A DNA stretch of 64,000 bases from Alphaproteobacteria bacterium (GTDB lineage: Bacteria > Pseudomonadota > Alphaproteobacteria > SP197), in NCBI GenBank assembly GCA_964291265.2, contig OZ219747.1, positions 3,136,001 through 3,200,000 on the forward strand, read 5' to 3'. A model generated the notes under the pieces. That model made no database searches and was not told the origin of the DNA. It saw only the letters and a list, made by a program, of their open reading frames with translations. This document shows positions 49,999-61,526 of this stretch, piece after piece (position 1 is the first letter of the stretch; every line of letters begins with the position of its first letter). Made by a program: the position numbers and the translations under genes.

Positions 49999-50073
49999 GG
50001 GCGCGTAGCTCAGCGGGAGAGCACTACGTTGACATCGTAGGGGTCGCTGGTTCAATCCCAGCCGCGCCCACCA
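49999..50073 (+). tRNA. tRNA-Val (GAC)
   Basis: GGGCGCG/CGCGCCC acceptor stem, TAGCTCAG D-arm, anticodon arm CTACG-TTGACAT-CGTAG, GGTTCAATCC T-loop, encoded CCA. Confidence 0.97.
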
Positions 50074-51460: not shown

Positions 51461-53112
51461 GGGTGTAGTTCTCGTATGGCGAAGCCAAGTCAATGATTTA
51501 TCACGGTCGTACGGTCGCGATGGAGCGGCAAATACGGGGTTTCGTGACAATTGCCCGTTGGACGAAGGCCGGATTTTGTCACGGTGGCAGGGCTTGGCGG
51601 TGGATGCGGGAACGCTCCGCACCGCAAGATGCGATATGATGCTGGCTTGAAACCACAACATCAGGAGCGCTCCCATGTCAGTGTCACAGCTTCGGCCTTC
51701 CGCGTCCATCGATCTTCTCGGCTTGCCGCCTCGGGTTGTCGAAGCGGTCACGCAAGTGACCGCGGTGTGTCATCGACAGCTTGGTTCAGAGCGCTCTGCC
51801 GAGGCCTTCGAGGAAGCGGAGCGGCGGGTGCTTGAGAGCGTGCACGCGCTTGGCTGCGAGATCCTGGGTGCCTGTGCCGAGGCCCGGGACGACGGTGCGC
51901 CCCGGATCGAACGGGACGGGCAGAACTGGTTCCGTGTGGCGCCGACGCCGAAGACGATCATGACCTCGCTCGGCCCGGTGACCTTTCGGCGTGCGCGCTA
52001 TCGCACCGGCGGGCACTGCCGGTCGCTGATGCCGGTGGACGAAAGCCTGGGCCTCGTCGACGACTACCTGACACGGCCGGCGGCTCAGCTTGGGCTGATG
52101 ATGATGGTCCACTGCACGGCGCGGGAAGCGGAGGCGTTCTTCGGCAAGCTCGGCGCCATGACGCCGTCTGTGAGCACCTTGCAGCGCTTGAGCCTGACCA
52201 TGCAGGAGCGTTGGGAACGTCTCGGCCCGCAGGCCCTGGATGGTATCCGGGAAGCCGAGGACATCCCGCAGGACGCGGTCACCGCCTCGGTCTCGCTCGA
52301 CGGCGTCATGGTGGCGCTGCGGGCCGGCGAGGACGGCCGTAGCGAGGCCTGCTGGCGCGAGGCGGCCTGTGGCACAGTCTCCTTCCACGACGCCGACGGT
52401 GAGCGCCTGAAGACCGTCTATCTCGGCCGCATGCCCGAGCGCGGCAAGTGCACGCTGAAGGCGCAGCTGGCAAGCGAGGTCGCGCATATCAGGCGCAAGC
52501 GTCCCGAGATCAGGATCAGCGCCATCGCCGACGCCGCCGCCGACAACTGGACCTTCCTCTCTGGTCTTGAACCCGAAACCGAGGTGATCGACTTCTGGCA
52601 TGCCTGCGAGCATCTGCGCGTGGTGGCCGACCATGCAGCGGCGCCCCACTGGTTCGAGAAGTACCGCGAGATCCTGCGTCACGACCCCCGCGGCATCGAC
52701 AAGGTGATCCGGGCGCTGCGCCACCTTCGCGACACCGCCAAGCCGGCGGGCCGAGCCGACATCGACAGGGAACTGGCCTTCTTCCGCAAGCATCGCCACC
52801 GCATGCGCTACCACGCACTGAAGCAACAGGGGATCGCCATCGGCTCGGGACTTGTCGAGGCAGCCAACAAGACCCTCGTCACACAGCGCATGAAGCGCTC
52901 CGGCATGCGCTGGCGCATCGTCGGCGGACAAGCCGTTCTCACCTTCCGCGCCCTGCTCAAATCAGGCCGCTTCGAGAGCGCGTGGACCGCCATGATCGAG
53001 GGCGACGACGCACCAGCCAACGACAACATCAACCCACATCACACCCCGGCGCCGGCCGCATGAGATGAAACAGTGGAACTGATTTTCAAATAGACATATA
53101 AAACTCACACCC
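51461..53112 (+). mobile_element. ISKra4-like insertion sequence
   Basis: Imperfect inverted ends GGGTGTAGTTCTCGTATG (51461) and CATATAAAACTCACACCC (ending 53112) around a single transposase gene; no target duplication seen. Confidence 0.7.
51675..53063 (+). CDS. ISKra4/ISLre2-like DDE transposase
   Basis: VSLDGVMV, IADAAADNW, IDFWHACEHL, IGSGLVEAANK, RMKRSGMRW. Confidence 0.88.
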   Translation: MSVSQLRPSASIDLLGLPPRVVEAVTQVTAVCHRQLGSERSAEAFEEAERRVLESVHALGCEILGACAEARDDGAPRIERDGQNWFRVAPTPKTIMTSLGPVTFRRARYRTGGHCRSLMPVDESLGLVDDYLTRPAAQLGLMMMVHCTAREAEAFFGKLGAMTPSVSTLQRLSLTMQERWERLGPQALDGIREAEDIPQDAVTASVSLDGVMVALRAGEDGRSEACWREAACGTVSFHDADGERLKTVYLGRMPERGKCTLKAQLASEVAHIRRKRPEIRISAIADAAADNWTFLSGLEPETEVIDFWHACEHLRVVADHAAAPHWFEKYREILRHDPRGIDKVIRALRHLRDTAKPAGRADIDRELAFFRKHRHRMRYHALKQQGIAIGSGLVEAANKTLVTQRMKRSGMRWRIVGGQAVLTFRALLKSGRFESAWTAMIEGDDAPANDNINPHHTPAPAA

Positions 53113-53160: not shown

Positions 53161-53946
53161 ATGCCTTCCAAGGCGGACGAAATCCGGGCCTACGCCCTAG
53201 AGCGATACGTGCGGCCTTGGCGGGGCTCCGACGAAAACCGCCTCGTTATTCGTGCGGGCGACATCGTCAAAGGTATGCGGTTGCACAACGCCACGCCGAA
53301 CGTATGCAGTTCCCTTGCGAGCCGTAAGTTCCAGCACGATGCCGGTATCGTCCTCGTTCGTCGTGAGGGTCCGCATCAAAGCACGACCACAACGTTTCAC
53401 TATGAGCCCGTCCGATCGACCCTTGATCCTCCAACGCGCCCCGGAAATACTCCACCTCCCGCCCGAATCGTCGGCAATCGCGTAGCCACCGTCTGGGTCT
53501 CCGTCCCCGACGACTGCTGGCGGAGTGCCGATCTGTGTCTGGTTTCCTGTGTCAGCGTGAAGCAATCCGCCGCGGCACCGGCCAGGGACCTGTACGTTTC
53601 TCCCTGGTTTCAGAAAGCTCGCGCTTGCGTCGAAGCACTTGGTTGCCCGTGGTACATCCTGTCCGTGAAGCATGGGCTCCTTGATCCGGGATCGACGATC
53701 GAACCTTATGACGAGACGCTGAAGGCCATGCCGGTGTACCGGCGACGTACCTGGGCACGCGGTGTGATTGGGGACCTCGCTCCGCGCTTGGCGAGTGTCG
53801 ACACCGTGACCCTCTTCGCGGGAACGGCATATCGCGAGTTCCTTGAACCGGAATTGCGTGGTCAGGGGCTCAAGCTCTATGTACCGATGCAGGGAATGCG
53901 CATCGGCCAGCAGCTCTCATGGCTGTCCGGCCAGGACCGTTCGTGA
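53161..53946 (+). CDS. Two-domain protein: small N-terminal putative DNA-binding domain plus DUF6884-like domain
   Basis: N-term IRAGDI...PNVCSSL..RKF; Pro-rich linker; C-term LVSCVSVK..PARDLY.S.WF, WYILS.KHGLL.P...IEPYDETL, G.RIGQQL.WL. Confidence 0.75.
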   Translation: MPSKADEIRAYALERYVRPWRGSDENRLVIRAGDIVKGMRLHNATPNVCSSLASRKFQHDAGIVLVRREGPHQSTTTTFHYEPVRSTLDPPTRPGNTPPPARIVGNRVATVWVSVPDDCWRSADLCLVSCVSVKQSAAAPARDLYVSPWFQKARACVEALGCPWYILSVKHGLLDPGSTIEPYDETLKAMPVYRRRTWARGVIGDLAPRLASVDTVTLFAGTAYREFLEPELRGQGLKLYVPMQGMRIGQQLSWLSGQDRS

Positions 53947-54692
53947 ACGCCACTGAGCTGACGCCCGGCCGCATCGCCGATTCCCTTCGCTTCTACGCGC
54001 TTCTTTCACGCATCTCAGAGCGAACCGGTGGATATAGATATCTCGCGACCTGCGACGGGCGCATGGAGTGGCCTCGCCGCGGCGTGTACTTCTTCTTCGA
54101 GCCAGACGAGCCCCGAATCGATCCTGGCCTTGGTCTACGTGTGGTACGGATCGGCACCCATGCGCTGAAGCCGGCGTCCCGAACGTCGTTATGGAATCGA
54201 CTCTCGCAGCATCGGGGCAGCTCACGATCCGGCATGGGCAATCACCGTGGGTCGATATTTCGGCTGATCGTTGGCGCGGCGCTCGCGCGCCGTGCCGTTA
54301 CATCGTTACCGTCGAGTTGGGGAGTCGGCTCGGACACAAGCGCCGCCGCTCGTAAGCTCGGCTTGGACCGCTCGACCGTGCAGTGCGAAGAGGCCGATCT
54401 CGAGCGGCGGGTCAGCGAGTATATTGGCCAAATGCCGTTCCTGTGGCTCGGCGTCGACGACCCGCCGGGCCCGGCCAGCCTGCGCGGTGTGATCGAGCGA
54501 AACACCATCGCTTTGCTCAGCCACGCCCAAACTCCTGCCGTTGATACCCCGTCAGACCGGTGGCTCGGCGGGTTCAGTGATCGAGAGATGGTGCGCGCAT
54601 CCGGACTGTGGAACAATCATCACGTCGCAGAACCACACGATCCTTCATTTCTCGACGAGATGGACACGCTCGTAGCCCGCTTCTGCGAGTGA
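53943..54692 (+). CDS. Putative GIY-YIG-like nuclease
   Basis: GVYFF...RVVRIGT, LWNRLSQH.G, GNHRGSIFR, late IERNTI glutamate, LWN; GTGA overlap with the upstream gene. Confidence 0.6.
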   Translation: MNATELTPGRIADSLRFYALLSRISERTGGYRYLATCDGRMEWPRRGVYFFFEPDEPRIDPGLGLRVVRIGTHALKPASRTSLWNRLSQHRGSSRSGMGNHRGSIFRLIVGAALARRAVTSLPSSWGVGSDTSAAARKLGLDRSTVQCEEADLERRVSEYIGQMPFLWLGVDDPPGPASLRGVIERNTIALLSHAQTPAVDTPSDRWLGGFSDREMVRASGLWNNHHVAEPHDPSFLDEMDTLVARFCE

Positions 54693-54859: not shown

Positions 54860-55830
54860 TTCCGGCGGGCCCGCTCCGGCATTGCCTCAGGGTCTCGTGG
54901 AGCGTCTTCGCATCGTCCGTGACCAGTTCGACTCTGTGGCGCGCGGGCGGCTGATCTCGACGTAGAAGCTCTTCTGCGTCGACAGTTTCGGGGGTTTCGC
55001 CTCCATCACCGCGATCACCTTGTCGACGGTGCGCCCCTGAAAGGGATGCACGGTCGAGGCCCAAGCATGGCCGAGATGGCGCAACTGCGGGTCACTCTTG
55101 CCGAATTCGAGCATCCGGCCGTCGCCGAGCCGGAAGGCGACAACTTCGTCCGGCGAATAGTTCACCGCGACCGCTTTCTCGGCACTCGCATGGCCATGGT
55201 AGACCAGCCGCTCGGCCTGAAGACGAGGCTGCGCATGACGCCGTCGCGGGCGAGGCGTTGAGCGGATGTGGCCGTTGATCCCGATGCGGAGCGCATGGCT
55301 CGGCGTCACCGGCCCGGTGTTCTCGCGTTCGTGGGCGGAGAGCTTCAACAACCAGGGCGCGGCGGCCGCGCCAGCGAGGTTATCGGGTTTGACCTCCGCC
55401 CCCGGTCGCCGAGCTTTCCGAAGACCCTGCAGACCTCGTCGGCGAGGCTCGCCCGCACTGCCTCTTGCAGGTTGGTGTCCTCCTGGCGCAGAATCTCGTC
55501 CCTTGCCGCCGTTTTCATGCCGGCGGCCTGGAGCTGGGCGAAGGACTTATCGGCATCCACCGCGTCAAGCTGCTTCTCAACAGCCCACCGGCACCACGCG
55601 GGGTATGCGGATGGCGGCGGCGATCCGGAGCAGGTCGCGGGTCTGGACGGTCGAGGCAAGCGAGCCCTCGTCGACCCCCAGCATGGTCTTGCGGAACGCC
55701 GCGCGCATTTCCCTGGCGCCCTTCCGGGTCAGCCGGCCCTCGGCGACGCCGGCATTGCGGGCGAGGAAGCGCCGCAGGGTCTCGGTCTCGATCCAGGCTT
55801 CAGGCCGCCGACACGAGAGCCGCCCTTCGC
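54860..55830 (-). pseudogene. Relic of a TrwC/TraI-type conjugative relaxase-helicase (C-terminal helicase part)
   Basis: Frameshifted pieces VDEGSLAST, RVVPVG, KQLDAVDA, FAQLQAAGM, ILRQ, HAWASTVH.FQGRTVD, FYVEISR. Confidence 0.8.
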
Positions 55831-56134
55831 GGCAAGCTGCCGGTCGAGGTTGAGCACCCATGGCTATGCCGAGCGGAACGACGATCAGGCAGGCCGTGAA
55901 AGGGGGGCGAAGATGCGGAAACAGCTCTCGAGAACGTCGGCGATGTAGTTTTTTTCCACGATCAGGGTGATGAGGGCGCCAAAGATCTCCTGGGGCGCCG
56001 GGAGGAATCGCTGACTCTCTTCAGGGATGATGTGGTGACCGCGTGAGCGCCTTCAGGCAGATTGATGATGCGTTGATCGGGCAATTTAGTGGACATGAGC
56101 TTTCGCGCTGCGCTTGGTTTGCGGTTCTTGAAGG

Positions 56135-56998
56135 CTACTTGGAAGGGAAGGCTGGTGTTCGTGCCTTGAGGACGTCGTTCCAGTCTTTGTGTCCGTCTGG
56201 GGGTCTCATGCGGAGAGCTCTTGGGTCTTGGCTGACGAGGCGCTCGGCGGCCTGTTCTCCGACGGGATCGGCGTCGAAGGCGACGAGGATGCGCTTTGGC
56301 GTCCAGGCTTCGGCCCATGTTGGGAGACGGTAGGCGATGCCGGCGGTTGACAGGATCACGGTAGCGGATTGCCGACATTCCTTGAGGCACCATGCGGAGA
56401 GGGCGTCGATGGCGCTTTCGGTGATGATGATGGTGCGTGGCATGGAGCGGTCCACGGGGATCCAGAAGCTGCCGGCGGCCTTGCGTGATCCACGCGCCAT
56501 GGCTCTGTACTGCTTTCCGTCTGCGTTGGGGACGGTACCGACGATCTCGGCGCCGGAGAGGTCTCTTTGTGCGTTGGTGCATGTGAAGACGGCGTTTCTG
56601 CGTTCGTCGGCGGCGACGAGGCCGTGCTGTCGGCAAGCGTCCAGGCAACGGTCTGGCAGGCGGCGTTCATGGGCGAGGTAGTGGCGTACGACGTGCCAGG
56701 CTTCCTCGCAGTGCGTTGGTGTTCTCGGCCCCTTGCCGCCGGAGCGTGCGGTGAGGAGTGCGACGGCGTCGTTGAAGCTGCAGCGGTGTGCATGCATGAC
56801 GAGATCGATGGCGCCGCCACCGCCGGACTGGGTGATGTGGTCGAACCAGCGTTGTTGGTTGACGCTGATGACGGATCCGTGGCGCTTGAAGCGTCGCGGG
56901 TCGCGCGGGTCTCTTCGGTAGCCGAGCCGCAGGGCGAGTGGTTCGAGGGGCTGGTTGCGGATGTCATCGAGATGCTGATTGTCCCAGGACCGGATCAT
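56135..56998 (-). CDS. DUF3991/Toprim domain protein (primase-like)
   Basis: GGAGG RBS; WFDH....GGGAIDLVMH, YLAHERRL, ITESAIDALS, VAFDADPVG, KDWNDVL. Confidence 0.85.
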   Translation of the reverse strand: MIRSWDNQHLDDIRNQPLEPLALRLGYRRDPRDPRRFKRHGSVISVNQQRWFDHITQSGGGGAIDLVMHAHRCSFNDAVALLTARSGGKGPRTPTHCEEAWHVVRHYLAHERRLPDRCLDACRQHGLVAADERRNAVFTCTNAQRDLSGAEIVGTVPNADGKQYRAMARGSRKAAGSFWIPVDRSMPRTIIITESAIDALSAWCLKECRQSATVILSTAGIAYRLPTWAEAWTPKRILVAFDADPVGEQAAERLVSQDPRALRMRPPDGHKDWNDVLKARTPAFPSK

Positions 56999-57033
56999 GG
57001 TCTGTCGAGCCTCCTGCGTGGTGGACGGGGGGT

Positions 57034-57095
57034 GGTTCCCGTTGGCGGTTCCCACCTGAACTCCCAGGGTGAACGGGAACCGGGAACCGGGAACC
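57034..57095. repeat. Inverted cluster of 7-bp repeats: GGTTCCC x2 and GGGAACC x3 (candidate origin/iterons)
   Basis: GGTTCCC at 57034 and 57047; tandem GGGAACC at 57075, 57082 and 57089; lies between the helicase and Toprim genes. Confidence 0.75.
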
Positions 57096-57132
57096 GCCTG
57101 GCGTCGGGGCGTTTTGCGCCTGGTTGTTGCGG

Positions 57133-58080
57133 TCAGGCTTTGGCGACGCGATAGGCACCGGGACCGTCCTGCGCGACACGTCCTTCCTGGACGAGCTTGG
57201 CCAGAAGCGTGGCGACGGTCGTGTTCCGTGTTGGGACGCGGTCCCGGACCTGGCGCAGCGAGAGCGGGGCATCGGCGTCGGCGAGGACCTGGACGATGCG
57301 CTGTTCGGGGGTTGGCGGCTGCGGCCTGGCGCCGTCTGGTTCCTGTTGCCGCAGCTGCAGGGCGGCTCCGTTGCCGCTGTCGGTGAGTTCGATGTCGAGA
57401 TCGGCGAGTCCGGGTGCGGCGCGGTGTTCGACGGTCATGAGGATGGTTTCGTGGCGGCGCCGCAGGTAGAGGTTGCTGTCGCCCCATGCGTGCAGCTCGC
57501 TGCTTCCGCGCAAGGCCTGTCCGGGCCGGCTGGCGGCGCTCTTGCGTGCGTGGTGGACGAGCAGCACGGCGGCGCCGGAGTGTCGCTGCACGTCGCGCAG
57601 GAAGCCGAGGATCGGCGCGATCTCGGCGACGGCGTTTTCGTCGACGCCGTGCAGGCGGACGAGGGGGTCGAGGATGAGCAGGCGGGAGCCGTGACGCTCG
57701 ACGGTCTCGAGCAGGCTCTGGCGGTCGGTTGGGTGGTCGAGGCGCAGTGCGGGGACGTCGATGACGGCGATGTCGAGGGTGTCGAAGTCGGCGCCGGCTG
57801 CGGCGGCGATGCCCTGGAGGCGGCGTCGCACGATGTGGCCGGCGTCCTCGGCGGCGAACATGAGCACCGGTCCGGGGTGCACGGCCGGGAAGCGGCGCAG
57901 ACAGGGGACGCCGGCGGCGACGGCGACGGCGAGATCGAGGGCGAGGAAGGACTTTCCGCACTTGGGTTCGCCGCCGATGATGCCGACGGCCTCGCGGCCC
58001 CACAGGCCGTCGACGAGCCACTGCCCCTCGGTTGGCCGGTCCTCGAGTTCGGCCGGGCTGCGGGTTGGCAGGCCGATCAT
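57133..58080 (-). CDS. AAA_25 / RepA-like (RecA/DnaB fold) helicase with C-terminal HTH
   Basis: WLVDGLW, GGEPKCGKS, FAAED, LLILDP, VHHARK, ALRGSS; C-terminal wHTH-like LSLRQVRDRV...LAKLVQEGRV. Confidence 0.88.
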   Translation of the reverse strand: MIGLPTRSPAELEDRPTEGQWLVDGLWGREAVGIIGGEPKCGKSFLALDLAVAVAAGVPCLRRFPAVHPGPVLMFAAEDAGHIVRRRLQGIAAAAGADFDTLDIAVIDVPALRLDHPTDRQSLLETVERHGSRLLILDPLVRLHGVDENAVAEIAPILGFLRDVQRHSGAAVLLVHHARKSAASRPGQALRGSSELHAWGDSNLYLRRRHETILMTVEHRAAPGLADLDIELTDSGNGAALQLRQQEPDGARPQPPTPEQRIVQVLADADAPLSLRQVRDRVPTRNTTVATLLAKLVQEGRVAQDGPGAYRVAKA

Positions 58081-58907
58081 CGTGTGCGCCTCGGCGGGAT
58101 GGGTTCGCCCCAGGTTTCGAGGAAGAGCTTTTCGTCGAGCACCTCGCGGTCGGTGTCGAGGGCGACAGCGAGGAGGTTGTCGGCGAGGATGGTCAGGGAG
58201 CGCGGATTGCCGTCTGCATGGACGACGAGGGTCTCCTTGAGGCCGGGGGTCATGAGGCCTGGATTGCCGGCGGCGTCGAGCAGGTGGTCGAGCAGGCGGA
58301 GCAGTTCGTCGGGTTCGCAGCGCGTCATGACGAGGCGTTGACGGACCCGCGAGGCGACGGCTTGCAGGTCGGGGCTGTGCAGCTTGGCGAGCAGGCGGCT
58401 GTCGCCGGCCAGGACGACGCTGAGGATGGCGCGCGAGTCGAACTCCGTGGAGGCGAGCAGGCGCAGTTCGGTGAGCACGGCCTGCGGCATCTCCTGGGCC
58501 TCGTCGACGAGCAGGACCGGGCGCATGCGGGTGTCCTCGAGATGGGTGAGCCAGCACTCGCGCAAGGCCTTGAAGCCGGCCCAGAGGTTCCGGCGCAGGG
58601 TCGTGATGCCGAAGAGGTCGGTCATCTCGCGGTAGAAGTCTGCGGTGCTCGACGAGGGATGGGCGAGAAGGGCGACGTCGAGGCCCTCCGCGGTCTCGAG
58701 ACGCTCGTCGAGCAGGCGCAGGGCGACGCTCTTGCCGGTGCCATGCTCGCCGGCCACCACGGCGAAGCCGCCCTGGCGCACGAGCTGACGCTCGATCCTG
58801 CGGCAGAAGCTGTCGATCGCGGGCGTTGCGAGAAGGCCCTCGACCGGCAGGTCGGCGGCGAAGGGGTTCCACTTGAGGCCGTAATGGGTGAGGTGTTGGC
58901 GGTTCAT
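58077..58907 (-). CDS. ExeA-like AAA+ ATPase (transposition helper)
   Basis: YGLKWNPF, GEHGTGKS, LLVDEAQ, VLAG, GNPR; ATGA overlaps on both sides. Confidence 0.9.
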   Translation of the reverse strand: MNRQHLTHYGLKWNPFAADLPVEGLLATPAIDSFCRRIERQLVRQGGFAVVAGEHGTGKSVALRLLDERLETAEGLDVALLAHPSSSTADFYREMTDLFGITTLRRNLWAGFKALRECWLTHLEDTRMRPVLLVDEAQEMPQAVLTELRLLASTEFDSRAILSVVLAGDSRLLAKLHSPDLQAVASRVRQRLVMTRCEPDELLRLLDHLLDAAGNPGLMTPGLKETLVVHADGNPRSLTILADNLLAVALDTDREVLDEKLFLETWGEPIPPRRTR

Positions 58908-60421
58908 GACATGTCTCCCTGATCGTTGTTGTCCTTGCCTTCGTCGTCCGGGCCGGCATCCTTGCCGAAGGGCAACCATGCCGGGGGCAGGCCGGTGGCG
59001 TCCTGCTCGTCGCGCAGGCGCTTGAGCAGCGGCGCCGGCCCGGTCTGTGGCTTCACCTCGTCGTCTTCTCTCCGGCGCCCGGTCCGGCGGCGGAGCCCCT
59101 CGGCGTTGCGAGACTTGTCCACCGGACGCAGGGTCGAGATGCGGTCCCCGGTGCGGCCGTCGACCATGTCGATGCCGGAGAGGTCCCAGCGGGCGACGCG
59201 CAGGTCGATCTCGCGCAGGTGGCGCCACGGCGCCGGCAGTTGATAGCGGACACTCGCCACCGTCACCGTGGCGTCGGAGCGTCGCACCTTGCGACGCACC
59301 TTGATGCGGAAGGCGGCCCGGAGTTCGCTGCTGTCCGGGCATGTCCGCGAGGCGTCCTCGCTGTCGATCACGCGCCTGAGCGGCGTGACCCCCGTCTCGC
59401 GGTGTACGCGGCGGTGATACTCGCGCTCGACCCAGATGACGGTGGCGTCGTTCAGGTCCTGCAGGGTCAGGGTCTCGACGTTCTCGAGCATCGCCATCAG
59501 GCGGCCCTCGACCTGGGCGAACAGCACCTCCTGCTTGCCGTTCTGGTACGGGCTGCGGACAAGCGTGTGGTGGTGCAGCACGCCGAGGGCGTGCAGTCCC
59601 TCCTGCACCTCCCCGGCCGTCATCGCCGATCCGTTGTCGGTCAGAAGGGACCGCGGCAGCCCTCGCTTCATGAAGGCCTGGCTGATGCCGTGAACGAAGA
59701 TCTCCGTGGTCTCCCCGAGATACCACTGCATGTGGCAGACGAGACGCGAATGGTCGTCGATGAAGCTGAGCAGGATCGGCGTCCTCCACTCCCCGGACGG
59801 CGTCAGCACGCGACAGGTCCGCGCATGGTGGAAGTCGGCGTGCCACAGGGCATGGCTGCGCGAGACCTCGTAGCTCAGCACCTCGCGCCCCTCGACCGCA
59901 GGCCGCTCCGCTTCACCACCGAACTTCCGCTGCCGCCGCCGCCGCTCCAGGCCCGCCGAACGCATGACCCGGGTCAGCGTCGCATAGGACGGCATCGGCC
60001 CGAGCGAAGGGTCGGCCTCGACCAGCGCGCAAAGGTTGTCGTGGTGGAGCTGAACCGACCACGTGGGGTGCGCCCTGTACTGGTCGCGCAAGGCCGCCAT
60101 CAGCAGGGGTGAGACGCTCCGCGCACGACCGGCGTCGCAGCGCACCCGACGGCGCAGCGCCCGCACCGGATCCCGGTCGGCCGACCGCGCCTTGTAGTAC
60201 CAGCGCTCGATCGTCGACACCGAGAAGCGGATCGTGCCGCCCCTGACGGGATGCTCCCAGTCCCGCCGCGACAGCCGTTGAAGCTCGGCCCGCAGACCCC
60301 CCTTCGGCGGCGGCGACGCCAGCAGCGGGCCAACCACCGCAAAGCGCAGCCGCGTCCAGGCGTCCCCGGCGTCCGCTTCGTCCTTCGTCACCACGACGGC
60401 CTTCCTCCCTCGTCGTCCCAT
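58904..60421 (-). CDS. DDE-type transposase/integrase (rve core, Mu/TnsB-like)
   Basis: N-terminal HTH (SVSTIERWY), WHADFHH, FIDDHSR, LTDNGSAM, QNGKQE, YHRRVH.ETG.TP, RKVRRSDATV. Confidence 0.9.
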   Translation of the reverse strand: MGRRGRKAVVVTKDEADAGDAWTRLRFAVVGPLLASPPPKGGLRAELQRLSRRDWEHPVRGGTIRFSVSTIERWYYKARSADRDPVRALRRRVRCDAGRARSVSPLLMAALRDQYRAHPTWSVQLHHDNLCALVEADPSLGPMPSYATLTRVMRSAGLERRRRQRKFGGEAERPAVEGREVLSYEVSRSHALWHADFHHARTCRVLTPSGEWRTPILLSFIDDHSRLVCHMQWYLGETTEIFVHGISQAFMKRGLPRSLLTDNGSAMTAGEVQEGLHALGVLHHHTLVRSPYQNGKQEVLFAQVEGRLMAMLENVETLTLQDLNDATVIWVEREYHRRVHRETGVTPLRRVIDSEDASRTCPDSSELRAAFRIKVRRKVRRSDATVTVASVRYQLPAPWRHLREIDLRVARWDLSGIDMVDGRTGDRISTLRPVDKSRNAEGLRRRTGRRREDDEVKPQTGPAPLLKRLRDEQDATGLPPAWLPFGKDAGPDDEGKDNNDQGDMS

Positions 60422-60443
60422 GGGAGGAAGGCCCTATACGGTC

Positions 60444-61058
60444 CTATGTCATCGCACTACAGGCACTCTCTGCGGGCGGCGACAGACCCTCGACGATCCT
60501 GCAGAAGCCGGTCCACGGCATGAGCCAGACCAGGCTCCGCAGAAGGCGCGATCGAAACGATCCGCCGCGCATCAAGCGCACCAGGGCCACAAGCGGAGGC
60601 TCGTCCGCCTCCACCGCCAGATCGCCACGTTTCCAGCGCCACGCCGCCGTCGCCGGGAACCTCTCCCGCCACCATCGACGCCACCGGCCAAGCGTCCTCT
60701 CCGGGATGCCAGACATGCGGCTCGCCTTCGCCAGGGGAACACTGCCGCACAGAACCAGGAGGCTCGCAGCCAGGTACACCGGCGCCGCACGGAACCTCCG
60801 GCCGAAGAAGCGCACCGAGGGCGGAGTCGTCCGGCTCCTGCACTCAGCACAGCAGAAGCTGAAGCGGCGGTTGTCGCCGCGAAGAGCAGGCGCAAGCGCG
60901 TGCGGCTTGCGCGGATACCGCGCACTGTGAAGGCGACCGCCGCAATGCGGGCATCCCTCCAGGCGGCAGCGCTCCGCCTCGGCCGCATCAATCCTCTCAA
61001 GGAGAGGCCAGACATGAGCGCAGGAAAGTATGGGACCCGGGAAGGAAACGTGCGACAT
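60444..61058 (-). CDS. Zn-finger plus HTH accessory protein
   Basis: CPHCGG, CCAECR, GIPERTLGRWRRWW; lies immediately upstream of the transposase. Confidence 0.75.
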   Translation of the reverse strand: MSHVSFPGPILSCAHVWPLLERIDAAEAERCRLEGCPHCGGRLHSARYPRKPHALAPALRGDNRRFSFCCAECRSRTTPPSVRFFGRRFRAAPVYLAASLLVLCGSVPLAKASRMSGIPERTLGRWRRWWRERFPATAAWRWKRGDLAVEADEPPLVALVRLMRGGSFRSRLLRSLVWLMPWTGFCRIVEGLSPPAESACSAMT

Positions 61059-61526
61059 TGACTGGCCTCCGGTGATCTCACCGTCACGGAGACAAGCCCC
61101 TCGGCCGACTTCTTGCAAGTCGGTCGAGGGGCAAACACACCAGACCAGCAGACAATTCAAGCAGAAACGACGGAATCCACGTCAAAAATCGCGCAAACGC
61201 TTACCGCGTTCCTCGATGATGAAGGTTCCGGTTGCTCCAGCGAGACCGGGGACGAGGGCGGTTCTGTCCAATGGCACGGTGCGCGATTCGAAGAGCGATG
61301 CACTGCGCCTGGCGATCCGATTCATATCCTTGCCTCGGCGCTTTCGTAGTCTGACCACGCCGGATTCCGATCGTCCGGGCCCTTGCCACTCATGGATGGA
61401 ACCTCTCCACGGCGGTGACGATATCAACGGTCGCACATGCCGATCAAGGAGCCGCGGCGACACCTTGAATTGAGAGGGTCGATATGCGGAAATGGCCTCT
61501 CTGCAACCGAATCCGGGAGAGACCCG

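Follow-up and report, generated by a model that had tools for sequence, protein, structure and literature searches.

Transposon Tn6049, known from Cupriavidus metallidurans CH34 and from P. aeruginosa pHS87a, is 3.5 kb long, was described in 12 copies and carries a 'gspA' ATPase (PMC2864759). Its ends are given as 12 bp and its target-site duplication as 4 bp (PMC4739549), and the module was reported as one that 'could not be categorized' (PMC6210171). In the Staphylococcus aureus pathogenicity islands (SaPI), the Rep protein uses a C-terminal winged helix to bind opposed iterons that lie directly downstream of its own gene (PMC9371898, PMC7581432). Here we describe a transposon located in a 64,000-nucleotide stretch of an alphaproteobacterial genome (GenBank assembly GCA_964291265.2, contig OZ219747.1, positions 3,136,001 to 3,200,000 of the forward strand), referred to below as the window. 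On protein sequence and gene order, its three-gene core is that of Tn6049, and two further genes follow, which encode a predicted helicase and a likely primase and are separated by a putative replication origin. The element is mobile as a five-gene unit, and we give an even chance to the proposal that its swappable origin-helicase-primase cassette supplies the copying step of simple-insertion transposition. To our knowledge, the way in which bacterial DDE transposons come by their replication, whether for copying out circles or for restarting forks at strand-transfer joints, has been studied in few models only, all of them reliant on host proteins. The features of the element, in window coordinates, are:

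56044 to 61203, minus strand: whole transposon, 5,160 bp, 68% G+C, a Tn6049-type core followed by the predicted helicase-origin-primase cassette, with identical boundaries in six copies
61204 to 61208, no strand: target-site duplication CCGCG, upstream side, from flank comparison
61198 to 61203, minus strand: upstream end TAAGCG, part of a 6-bp imperfect terminal inverted repeat, with TA where close relatives have TG
60444 to 61058, minus strand: orfA, a Cys-rich (CPHC...CCAEC) and helix-turn-helix (HTH) protein, weak match to HTH_23, homologue of the first Tn6049 gene
58904 to 60421, minus strand: DD35E transposase, Pfam rve, IS481-like below cut-off, 47.5% to Tn6049 TnpA
58077 to 58907, minus strand: ExeA-like AAA+ ATPase, Pfam AAA_22, 52% to the Tn6049 'gspA' ATPase
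57133 to 58080, minus strand: predicted RecA-fold helicase of the RepA(RSF1010) type with a C-terminal winged helix, Pfam AAA_25 and a weak C-terminal HTH match
57034 to 57097, no strand: origin-like palindrome, on the gene strand three GTTCCC-type hexamers, a short core and two GGGAAC-type hexamers
56135 to 56998, minus strand: DUF3991/Toprim protein with a predicted DnaG/T7-gp4 primase fold, Pfam DUF3991 and Toprim, acidic catalytic residues intact
56044 to 56049, plus strand: downstream end TGAGCG
56039 to 56043, no strand: target-site duplication CCGCG, downstream side, from flank comparison

A mobile five-gene unit

The five genes are co-oriented on the minus strand in the order given by an earlier sequence-only reading of this stretch, and the ATGA overlaps it reported between transposase and ATPase and between ATPase and helicase were found in the sequence (58904-58907 and 58077-58080, TCAT on the plus strand). 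The catalytic residues it regarded as intact are conserved in alignments, D196, D262 and E298 of the transposase being invariant among 30 aligned transposases taken from 120 listed homologues, as are the helicase motifs and the Toprim acidic residues detailed below. That reading had placed a transposon at 56031..61220; the element is indeed there, with its true ends slightly inside this range, at 56044 and 61203.

Aligning copies, a check proposed by the same reading, defined both ends and the target duplication. The source genome contains five more copies of the element, 99.3-99.5% identical and spanning the same 5,160 bp, together with several relics. On the gene strand, the ends are TAAGCG ... 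CGCTCA, and they fall at identical bases in all six copies (window 56044 and 61203), each of which is bordered by its own perfect 5-bp duplication (CCGCG, GATGG, GCACC, GACGG, ACAGG and ACGTC). Two of the further copies are interrupted by another element; once this insertion is discounted, the five genes are open in all six. An empty site was present in contigs of runs X2 and X3, which belong to the same study as run X1: position 56037 is joined to 61203, skipping 5,165 bp, that is, 5,160 plus 5. Because the copies carry their own duplications and an empty site exists, the five genes move as one unit. In addition, crude dN/dS values against close relatives were 0.26-0.49 for the helicase (5 pairs), 0.33-0.39 for the Toprim gene (2 pairs) and 0.25-0.38 for the transposase, and by this measure purifying selection acts on the helicase and Toprim genes as it does on the transposase. 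Taken together, these data demonstrate that the element is real, active and mobile, and that the helicase and Toprim genes are part of it, as had been claimed.

Matched 5-bp duplications were also found in other genomes. A second genome (G013) carries six helicase-only copies of 4,354 bp, all six with matched duplications, and two five-gene copies of 5,169 bp (L033/L034) both have them, so that 14 of 14 copies from three genomes are bordered in this way. In L107, L108 and L110, relatives of 3,445 bp that have three genes and nothing in the fourth slot, the apparent duplications are only 3-4 bp long. As a side observation, the upstream terminus of the element (61198-61203), which has TA instead of TG, is still used in all six insertions. 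Contig C1 of the source genome holds a deletion relic (~266725-267507) in which the 3' part of the helicase gene is fused to the last Toprim codons and the element end; this relic likely accounts for a 927-nt skip in the contig comparison.

The sequence-only reading knew of no named family with this architecture, but the core carries the name Tn6049. The order orfA, rve transposase, ExeA/'gspA' ATPase is the same, both elements are multi-copy, and orfA matches the corresponding Tn6049 open reading frame (ORF) at 46% over 137 aa. The transposase matched 22 plasmid records, chiefly from Cupriavidus, and the order on pMOL30 is a transposase-like ORF, an IS481-like transposase, the ATPase and a 71-aa ORF. 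Tn6049, at ~3.5 kb, has a short fourth ORF and no helicase, palindrome or primase, as opposed to the 5,160-bp element with its helicase and Toprim genes. Its ends are also 6 bp longer: the 12-bp sequences TGTGCATAAGCA and TGCTCACGCACA are not found here, and only their inner six bases match (TAAGCA/TGCTCA versus TAAGCG/CGCTCA). The duplication of Tn6049 is either 4 bp, as stated in the source cited above for its ends (PMC4739549), or 6 bp on pMOL30, compared with 5 bp for the element. From a comparison with loci L044 and L016:4195-7711, we noted that the TAAGCG/CGCTCA hexamers correspond to the inner half of the Tn6049 ends, which implies that the cut site has moved by 6 bp from one relative to another.

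Assignment to the IS481 or IS21 family was not supported. The transposase scored 110 bits against the NCBIfam IS481 model NF033577, for a cut-off of 224, and had no match to an IS21 model; likewise, the ATPase matches AAA_22 and not IstB_IS21. The ATPase is likely a regulator or target-capture subunit comparable to IstB, TnsC or MuB. For orfA, DUF6431-like clusters among ESM Atlas neighbours provide a lead only. Single-sequence PDB searches with the Toprim protein, ATPase and transposase returned nothing useful, and no sigma-70 promoter match was found. The leader upstream of orfA contains an inverted repeat, GCCCCTCG ... CGAGGGGC on the gene strand (window 61096-61132), a possible operator.

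The cassette behind the ATPase

The fourth gene product is predicted to be a helicase of the RepA/DnaB type. RSF1010 RepA was its only significant PDB sequence match (3e-13), and residues 258-312 gave weak matches to Z-alpha winged helices. With a structure model of high confidence (predicted local distance difference test, pLDDT, 93.9), a fold search returned RepA first, followed by DnaB, RadA and RAD51 paralogues; since RadA and RAD51 paralogues are among the matches, the fold alone is no proof of helicase activity. The motif set resembles that of superfamily (SF) 4, with a RecA fold, Walker A, catalytic Glu, Walker B, His motif, RGSS motif and Arg finger, and K43, E78, D138, R191 and R220 do not vary across an alignment of 66 relatives, R220 being, from its position, the presumed Arg finger. 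Phage matches of the helicase are distant, at 27-35% identity among the 12 matches listed.

Between the helicase and Toprim genes lies the palindrome, on which the sequence-only reading had not remarked, and which we infer to be a putative replication origin recognised by the helicase, by analogy with SaPI and from its distribution. Such a palindrome is found no more than 480 nt from the helicase at 75 of 81 non-redundant loci, as opposed to 2 of 29 helicase-less loci and 16 of 600 random windows, in a count whose scoring rule was set after viewing the sequences and whose loci are kin rather than independent. In nine loci it lies more than 200 nt downstream of the helicase, and it was absent from the three primase-only elements scored. 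Both arms switch together between GTTCC, TTTCC, CTTCC and GTTAC types. Within the clade of the element, the recognition helix contains a conserved Arg, and the next residue is Pro in 7 of 8 GTTAC elements and Asn or His in all 14 GTTCC elements, none of which has Pro. On a tree of the ATPase domain only, the repeat type changes four times; a single clade was rejected (approximately unbiased test, p-AU 1e-7) and one-change trees made up 0% of the bootstraps, the repeat-type groups having been chosen after the helicase tree and the repeat typing. The helix thus matches the repeats despite four changes of repeat type, suggesting that the two move as a pair, whether because one recognises the other or because they are linked.

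The start of the Toprim gene lies 134 nt past the helicase stop; the gene has its own GGAGG and is not coupled to the helicase gene. Its product is likely a primase of the DnaG/T7 type, a prediction made from profiles and a structure model. E194, D198, D242 and D244 are invariant and D272 is nearly so among 73 relatives; all seven matches of the profile against PDB were T7 gp4 or DnaG, albeit weak (E 0.013-0.15); and the model (pLDDT 91.8) matches the folds of DnaG, Twinkle and gp4. No match to the Toprim protein was obtained in 300 other genomes at the class level, and 7 of 32 other genomes of the family have matches, mostly behind transposon ATPases or in relics. A DUF3991/Toprim gene without the helicase is also carried by a distant DDE/ExeA element of genomes G005 (17 matches) and G013 and by an IS21-type element of the source genome.

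To what extent relatives share this arrangement was assessed at the best 80 of 142 genome loci, several of which are copies from one genome; 69 were scorable and 11 were not. The slot after the ATPase held helicase and Toprim genes at 4 loci (two genomes), the helicase only at 37 and no helicase at 28. With 28 of 69 loci devoid of helicase and 4 of 69 complete, the module is accessory and exchangeable rather than family-defining. The five-gene order, whose recurrence in unrelated genomes the sequence-only reading had asked about, was thus found, among the scored loci, in two genomes (4 loci). That reading had counted a usual absence of the two genes from relatives against itself, and many relatives do lack the module. 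Among 30 non-redundant helicase-less loci, 10 had a primase-like gene, 5 a short ORF with an acidic-aromatic tail, 12 none or another gene, and 3 were too short. Pfam searches of the slot genes identified CHC2 alone (L044) or behind the helicase (L086), CHC2/Toprim of the DnaG type in L088 and L089 and, behind the helicase, in L229, and a RepB' primase in L103.

A metagenome census covered the best 80 of 324 loci, close relatives of the helicase only, 6 of them without upstream DNA. At all 74 others, the helicase sits behind a transposon ATPase, which is of Tn6049 type in 54, of a distant DDE/ExeA family (26-31% identity) in 11 and an IS21 IstB in 9, two of these backbone labels being ambiguous. 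A quick tree of 97 helicases, from which duplicates, edge rows and one ambiguous row were left out, required 7 backbone changes for a minimum of 2. On this sequence comparison, the close helicase relatives are dedicated to transposons, and the helicase cassette swaps among three transposon backbones. The helicase profile was also run against 400 other genomes sampled evenly across the phylum, of which 15 matched. All three strong matches lie behind a transposase-ATPase pair, and in two of these, as well as in a fragment, a DnaG-type primase comes next. Most of the weak ones (~25%) are fusions of the form primase-AAA_25-winged-helix, and several have opposed repeats of the same hexamers behind them; we take these distant relatives to be of satellite type.

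In Tn6049-type and IS21-type elements, a small protein family (~60-95 aa) was also seen next after the ATPase, three times before a helicase (L016, L017, L041, L073, L083, L139, L142 and L188). Several members share 'W(T/S)PEQAL...', the acidic tail ends in Phe in 6 of 8 loci, and two tested members had no Pfam match; the acidic-aromatic tail presumably resembles the C-terminus of SSB.

Routes for the copying step

How might the cassette serve transposition? In the scheme that we propose, the helicase would use its winged helix to load itself on the palindrome of hexamers that directly follows its gene, the Toprim protein would prime DNA synthesis and a host polymerase would copy the element. 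The copy would arise either as a circle, by copy-out and paste-in, or through renewed local replication of the donor ahead of strand transfer, and the transposase and ATPase would insert it. Host DnaG and restart proteins may stand in where primase or helicase is missing, and this would account for the optional nature of the cassette. More tentatively, and somewhat short of an even chance, these elements may represent an undescribed, widespread class of self-priming DDE transposons, in which a satellite-derived origin-helicase(-primase) cassette, by now dedicated to transposons and moving among the three backbones, would allow copy-out without host restart proteins.

Several observations weigh against this scheme. 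Tn6049 reaches its 12 copies with neither a helicase nor a primase gene among those described for it (PMC2864759). Besides the 28 helicase-less and 4 complete loci among the 69 scored, the Toprim gene follows the helicase at only 4 of 34 metagenome loci with enough DNA, and some relatives keep the zinc finger alone. The N-terminal domain of the Toprim protein resembles a zinc-binding domain but is devoid of conserved cysteine ligands and has no CHC2 match. Regarding the palindrome, the core is short and G+C-rich, unlike the AT-rich centre of SaPI, the order of the arms is reversed relative to the repeats of the distant fusion proteins, two loci with helicase and primase (L228 and L229) show no obvious palindrome, and the covariation of helix and repeats may be simple linkage, the two being ~100-150 bp apart.

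The sequence-only reading had suggested looking for circle-junction reads or raised coverage, and the outcome was negative for both. In run X1, the depth over the element (~320-360, flanks ~55) is about that of six assembled copies and hence gives no sign of free replication; the ratios fit the assembled copy number for the element (~6x) as for an IS21-type element of the same genome (~32x), and the higher ratios of X2 and X3, which mix strains and organisms, were not used. No end-to-end joint was present in the genome or in the contigs of X1-X4, but this null result is uninformative because the IS21-type control shows none either and contigs drop rare forms.

A non-replicative, accessory function of the cassette is unlikely in our view. 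The palindrome-bound helicase would then remodel or strip the transpososome, or the proteins would steer insertion to forks or single-stranded DNA, as does TnsE. Tn7-like elements keep their target selectors in the same slot. Here, the slot can instead be occupied by the zinc finger alone or by the acidic-aromatic-tailed short protein (5 of 30 helicase-less loci), and the helicase domain of the insertion sequence (IS) excision enhancer, IEE, is reported to have ATPase but no unwinding activity (10.1101/2023.06.07.543989), all of which would suit such a function. By contrast, the conservation of catalytic residues in both the helicase and the Toprim protein speaks against it, and a palindrome that lies in cis and goes with the helicase is more readily understood as an origin than as a target selector. 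No replichore orientation bias was observed in the source genome, in small numbers, with 4 co-directional and 2 head-on copies of the element (24 and 25 for the IS21-type Toprim element), which weakens fork targeting yet lends no support to replication. The strand split of the six copies in the second genome was unmatched by the skew sampled in 19 windows.

Slightly less probable is replicative transposition of the Mu/TnsBC type, in which the helicase and primase of the element would replace host PriA, DnaB and DnaG at a Shapiro intermediate and host recombination would resolve the cointegrate. The element resembles TnsBC transposons, with a DDE and AAA+ pair, no TnsA, TG..CA-like ends and 5-bp duplications, and Mu-transpos_C is weakly matched by 3 of 30 transposase relatives. 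Also in its favour, TnsBC elements are described as replicative (10.1101/2024.11.13.623437), and RecA can resolve cointegrates devoid of a resolvase (PMC8649781). Against it, there is no resolvase gene inside the element ends, and intramolecular events of this type would give inversions or deletions with swapped flanks, whereas all 14 copies from the three genomes have matched duplications. Matched duplications and the lack of a resolvase therefore favour the copy route over the cointegrate route.

Doubtful to a greater degree is the idea that the cassette acts outside the transposition chemistry and maintains the excised element, or raises its copy number, as a circular, short-lived plasmid that aids persistence or horizontal transfer, as proposed for SCCmec. 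SCC elements have a helicase, a primase and a putative origin, and their post-excision replication has been proposed (PMC7581432); moreover, the helicase swaps among unrelated backbones, with no need for contact with the transposase. Such a mini-replicon is at odds with the lack of excess depth, of a circle joint and of partition or copy-control genes inside the element ends, and with the failure of the helicase to match PLSDB plasmids (E 1e-15) or, in a pattern search, IMG/VR.

Finally, it is very improbable that the helicase and Toprim genes ride along as passive cargo or were left behind by a neighbouring conjugative element, an idea suggested by the broken relaxase-helicase remnant at ~54887-56040 and by the many relatives without the genes, since this remnant adjoins the window copy only and the other five copies, in unrelated flanks, have the same genes inside their duplications, under purifying selection and, in the metagenome census, behind transposon ATPases at 74 of 74 loci. 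The origin from the neighbouring remnant, which the sequence-only reading had named as the finding that would undo its proposal, is ruled out by these five copies.

Known systems, neighbouring elements and significance

The scheme of an origin-helicase-primase cassette serving transposition has partial precedents. As far as the cited sources describe them, SaPI and other phage-inducible chromosomal islands (pri-rep-ori) and the staphylococcal cassette chromosome SCCmec (cch-primase-ori) combine a helicase bearing a C-terminal origin-binding domain with a non-essential primase. As in SaPI, opposed iterons lie here directly downstream of the gene for a helicase with a C-terminal winged helix. 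The helicases differ, being SF3/MCM-type in SaPI and SCCmec and of the RecA-fold RepA type in the element; the core of the palindrome is short and G+C-rich instead of AT-rich; and the primase gene comes after the origin, unlike in the SaPI and SCCmec modules. SaPI and SCCmec are mobilised by site-specific recombinases, as opposed to the element, which moves by DDE transposition to many sites. In the RepA/RepB'/RepC system of RSF1010, RepA is the closest protein by sequence and fold, and one relative of the element has a RepB' primase in the slot; the primase of the element is of the DnaG/Toprim type, with no plasmid context. RSF1010 RepA is not known to have a winged helix and needs RepC.

With IS21 and the Mu-like TnsBC elements, the transposon shares a DDE transposase coupled to an AAA+ ATPase, TG..CA-like ends and a ~5-bp duplication. 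It differs from IS21 in its ExeA-like ATPase (AAA_22, no IstB_IS21) and in a transposase that NCBIfam does not assign to IS21. Described IS21 and TnsBC members rely on host replication. Casposons carry a family B polymerase. They are prokaryotic transposons proposed to be self-synthesising (PMC4779613), with a Cas1 integrase and without the DDE/AAA+ pair. IS21 is listed among families with circular intermediates, and IEE, like the proposed cassette, combines primase and helicase acting with the transposase on copy-out IS intermediates (10.1101/2023.06.07.543989). As described in that source, IEE is a single AEP-DEAD/DEAH protein from other enzyme families, encoded outside the IS and acting in trans on many IS, in abortive excision. 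A search of full-text literature, with subscription papers, ISfinder and TnCentral outside its scope, revealed no DDE transposon with this helicase, origin and primase. By analogy with these systems, what seems new is a transposon of the Tn6049/IS21/TnsBC kind that would work as if fused to a SaPI-style replication start.

The source genome contains a second multi-copy element, ~5.3 kb long and of IS21 type (contig C2, 2284347-2289672; also L271:554-5879), which interrupts two copies of the five-gene element. It encodes a Cys-rich ORF, IstA, IstB, a Toprim/DUF3991-like protein with apparently intact acidic motifs and a small ORF, and has internal repeats; its ATPase matches IstB_IS21. We counted 49 left and 42 right ends, and duplications of 5-7 bp flank 30 of the 36 paired copies. 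In the window, a tRNA-Val(GAC) gene (49999-50073) lies ~1.4 kb upstream of a cluster of mobile elements, which includes an ISKra4-like IS (51461-53080; NCBIfam 156 bits for a cut-off of 205), which exists in about ten more near-full copies (97-98% identity). Between this IS and the relaxase remnant (53161-54692), a DUF6884 protein overlaps a 257-aa ORF without known family; the two are possibly a defence pair, although this is a guess. The fragmented relaxase-helicase remnant itself (AAA_30/UvrD_C_2) spans 54887-56040, and the element is inserted in its edge.

The relatives of the element form a natural series defined by the fourth slot, which contains nothing, an acidic-tailed protein, a zinc finger, a primase, helicase and origin, or helicase, origin and primase. 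Because its members differ only in this slot, the replication question can be tested directly by cassette swaps on relatives that can be cultured, Tn6049 among them. If the proposal is true, the uncategorised Tn6049 would be given a place, and broad host range could in part be explained. If the origin fires, bacterial DDE transposons with a replication origin of their own would exist, linking the biology of insertion sequences to that of satellite replicons.

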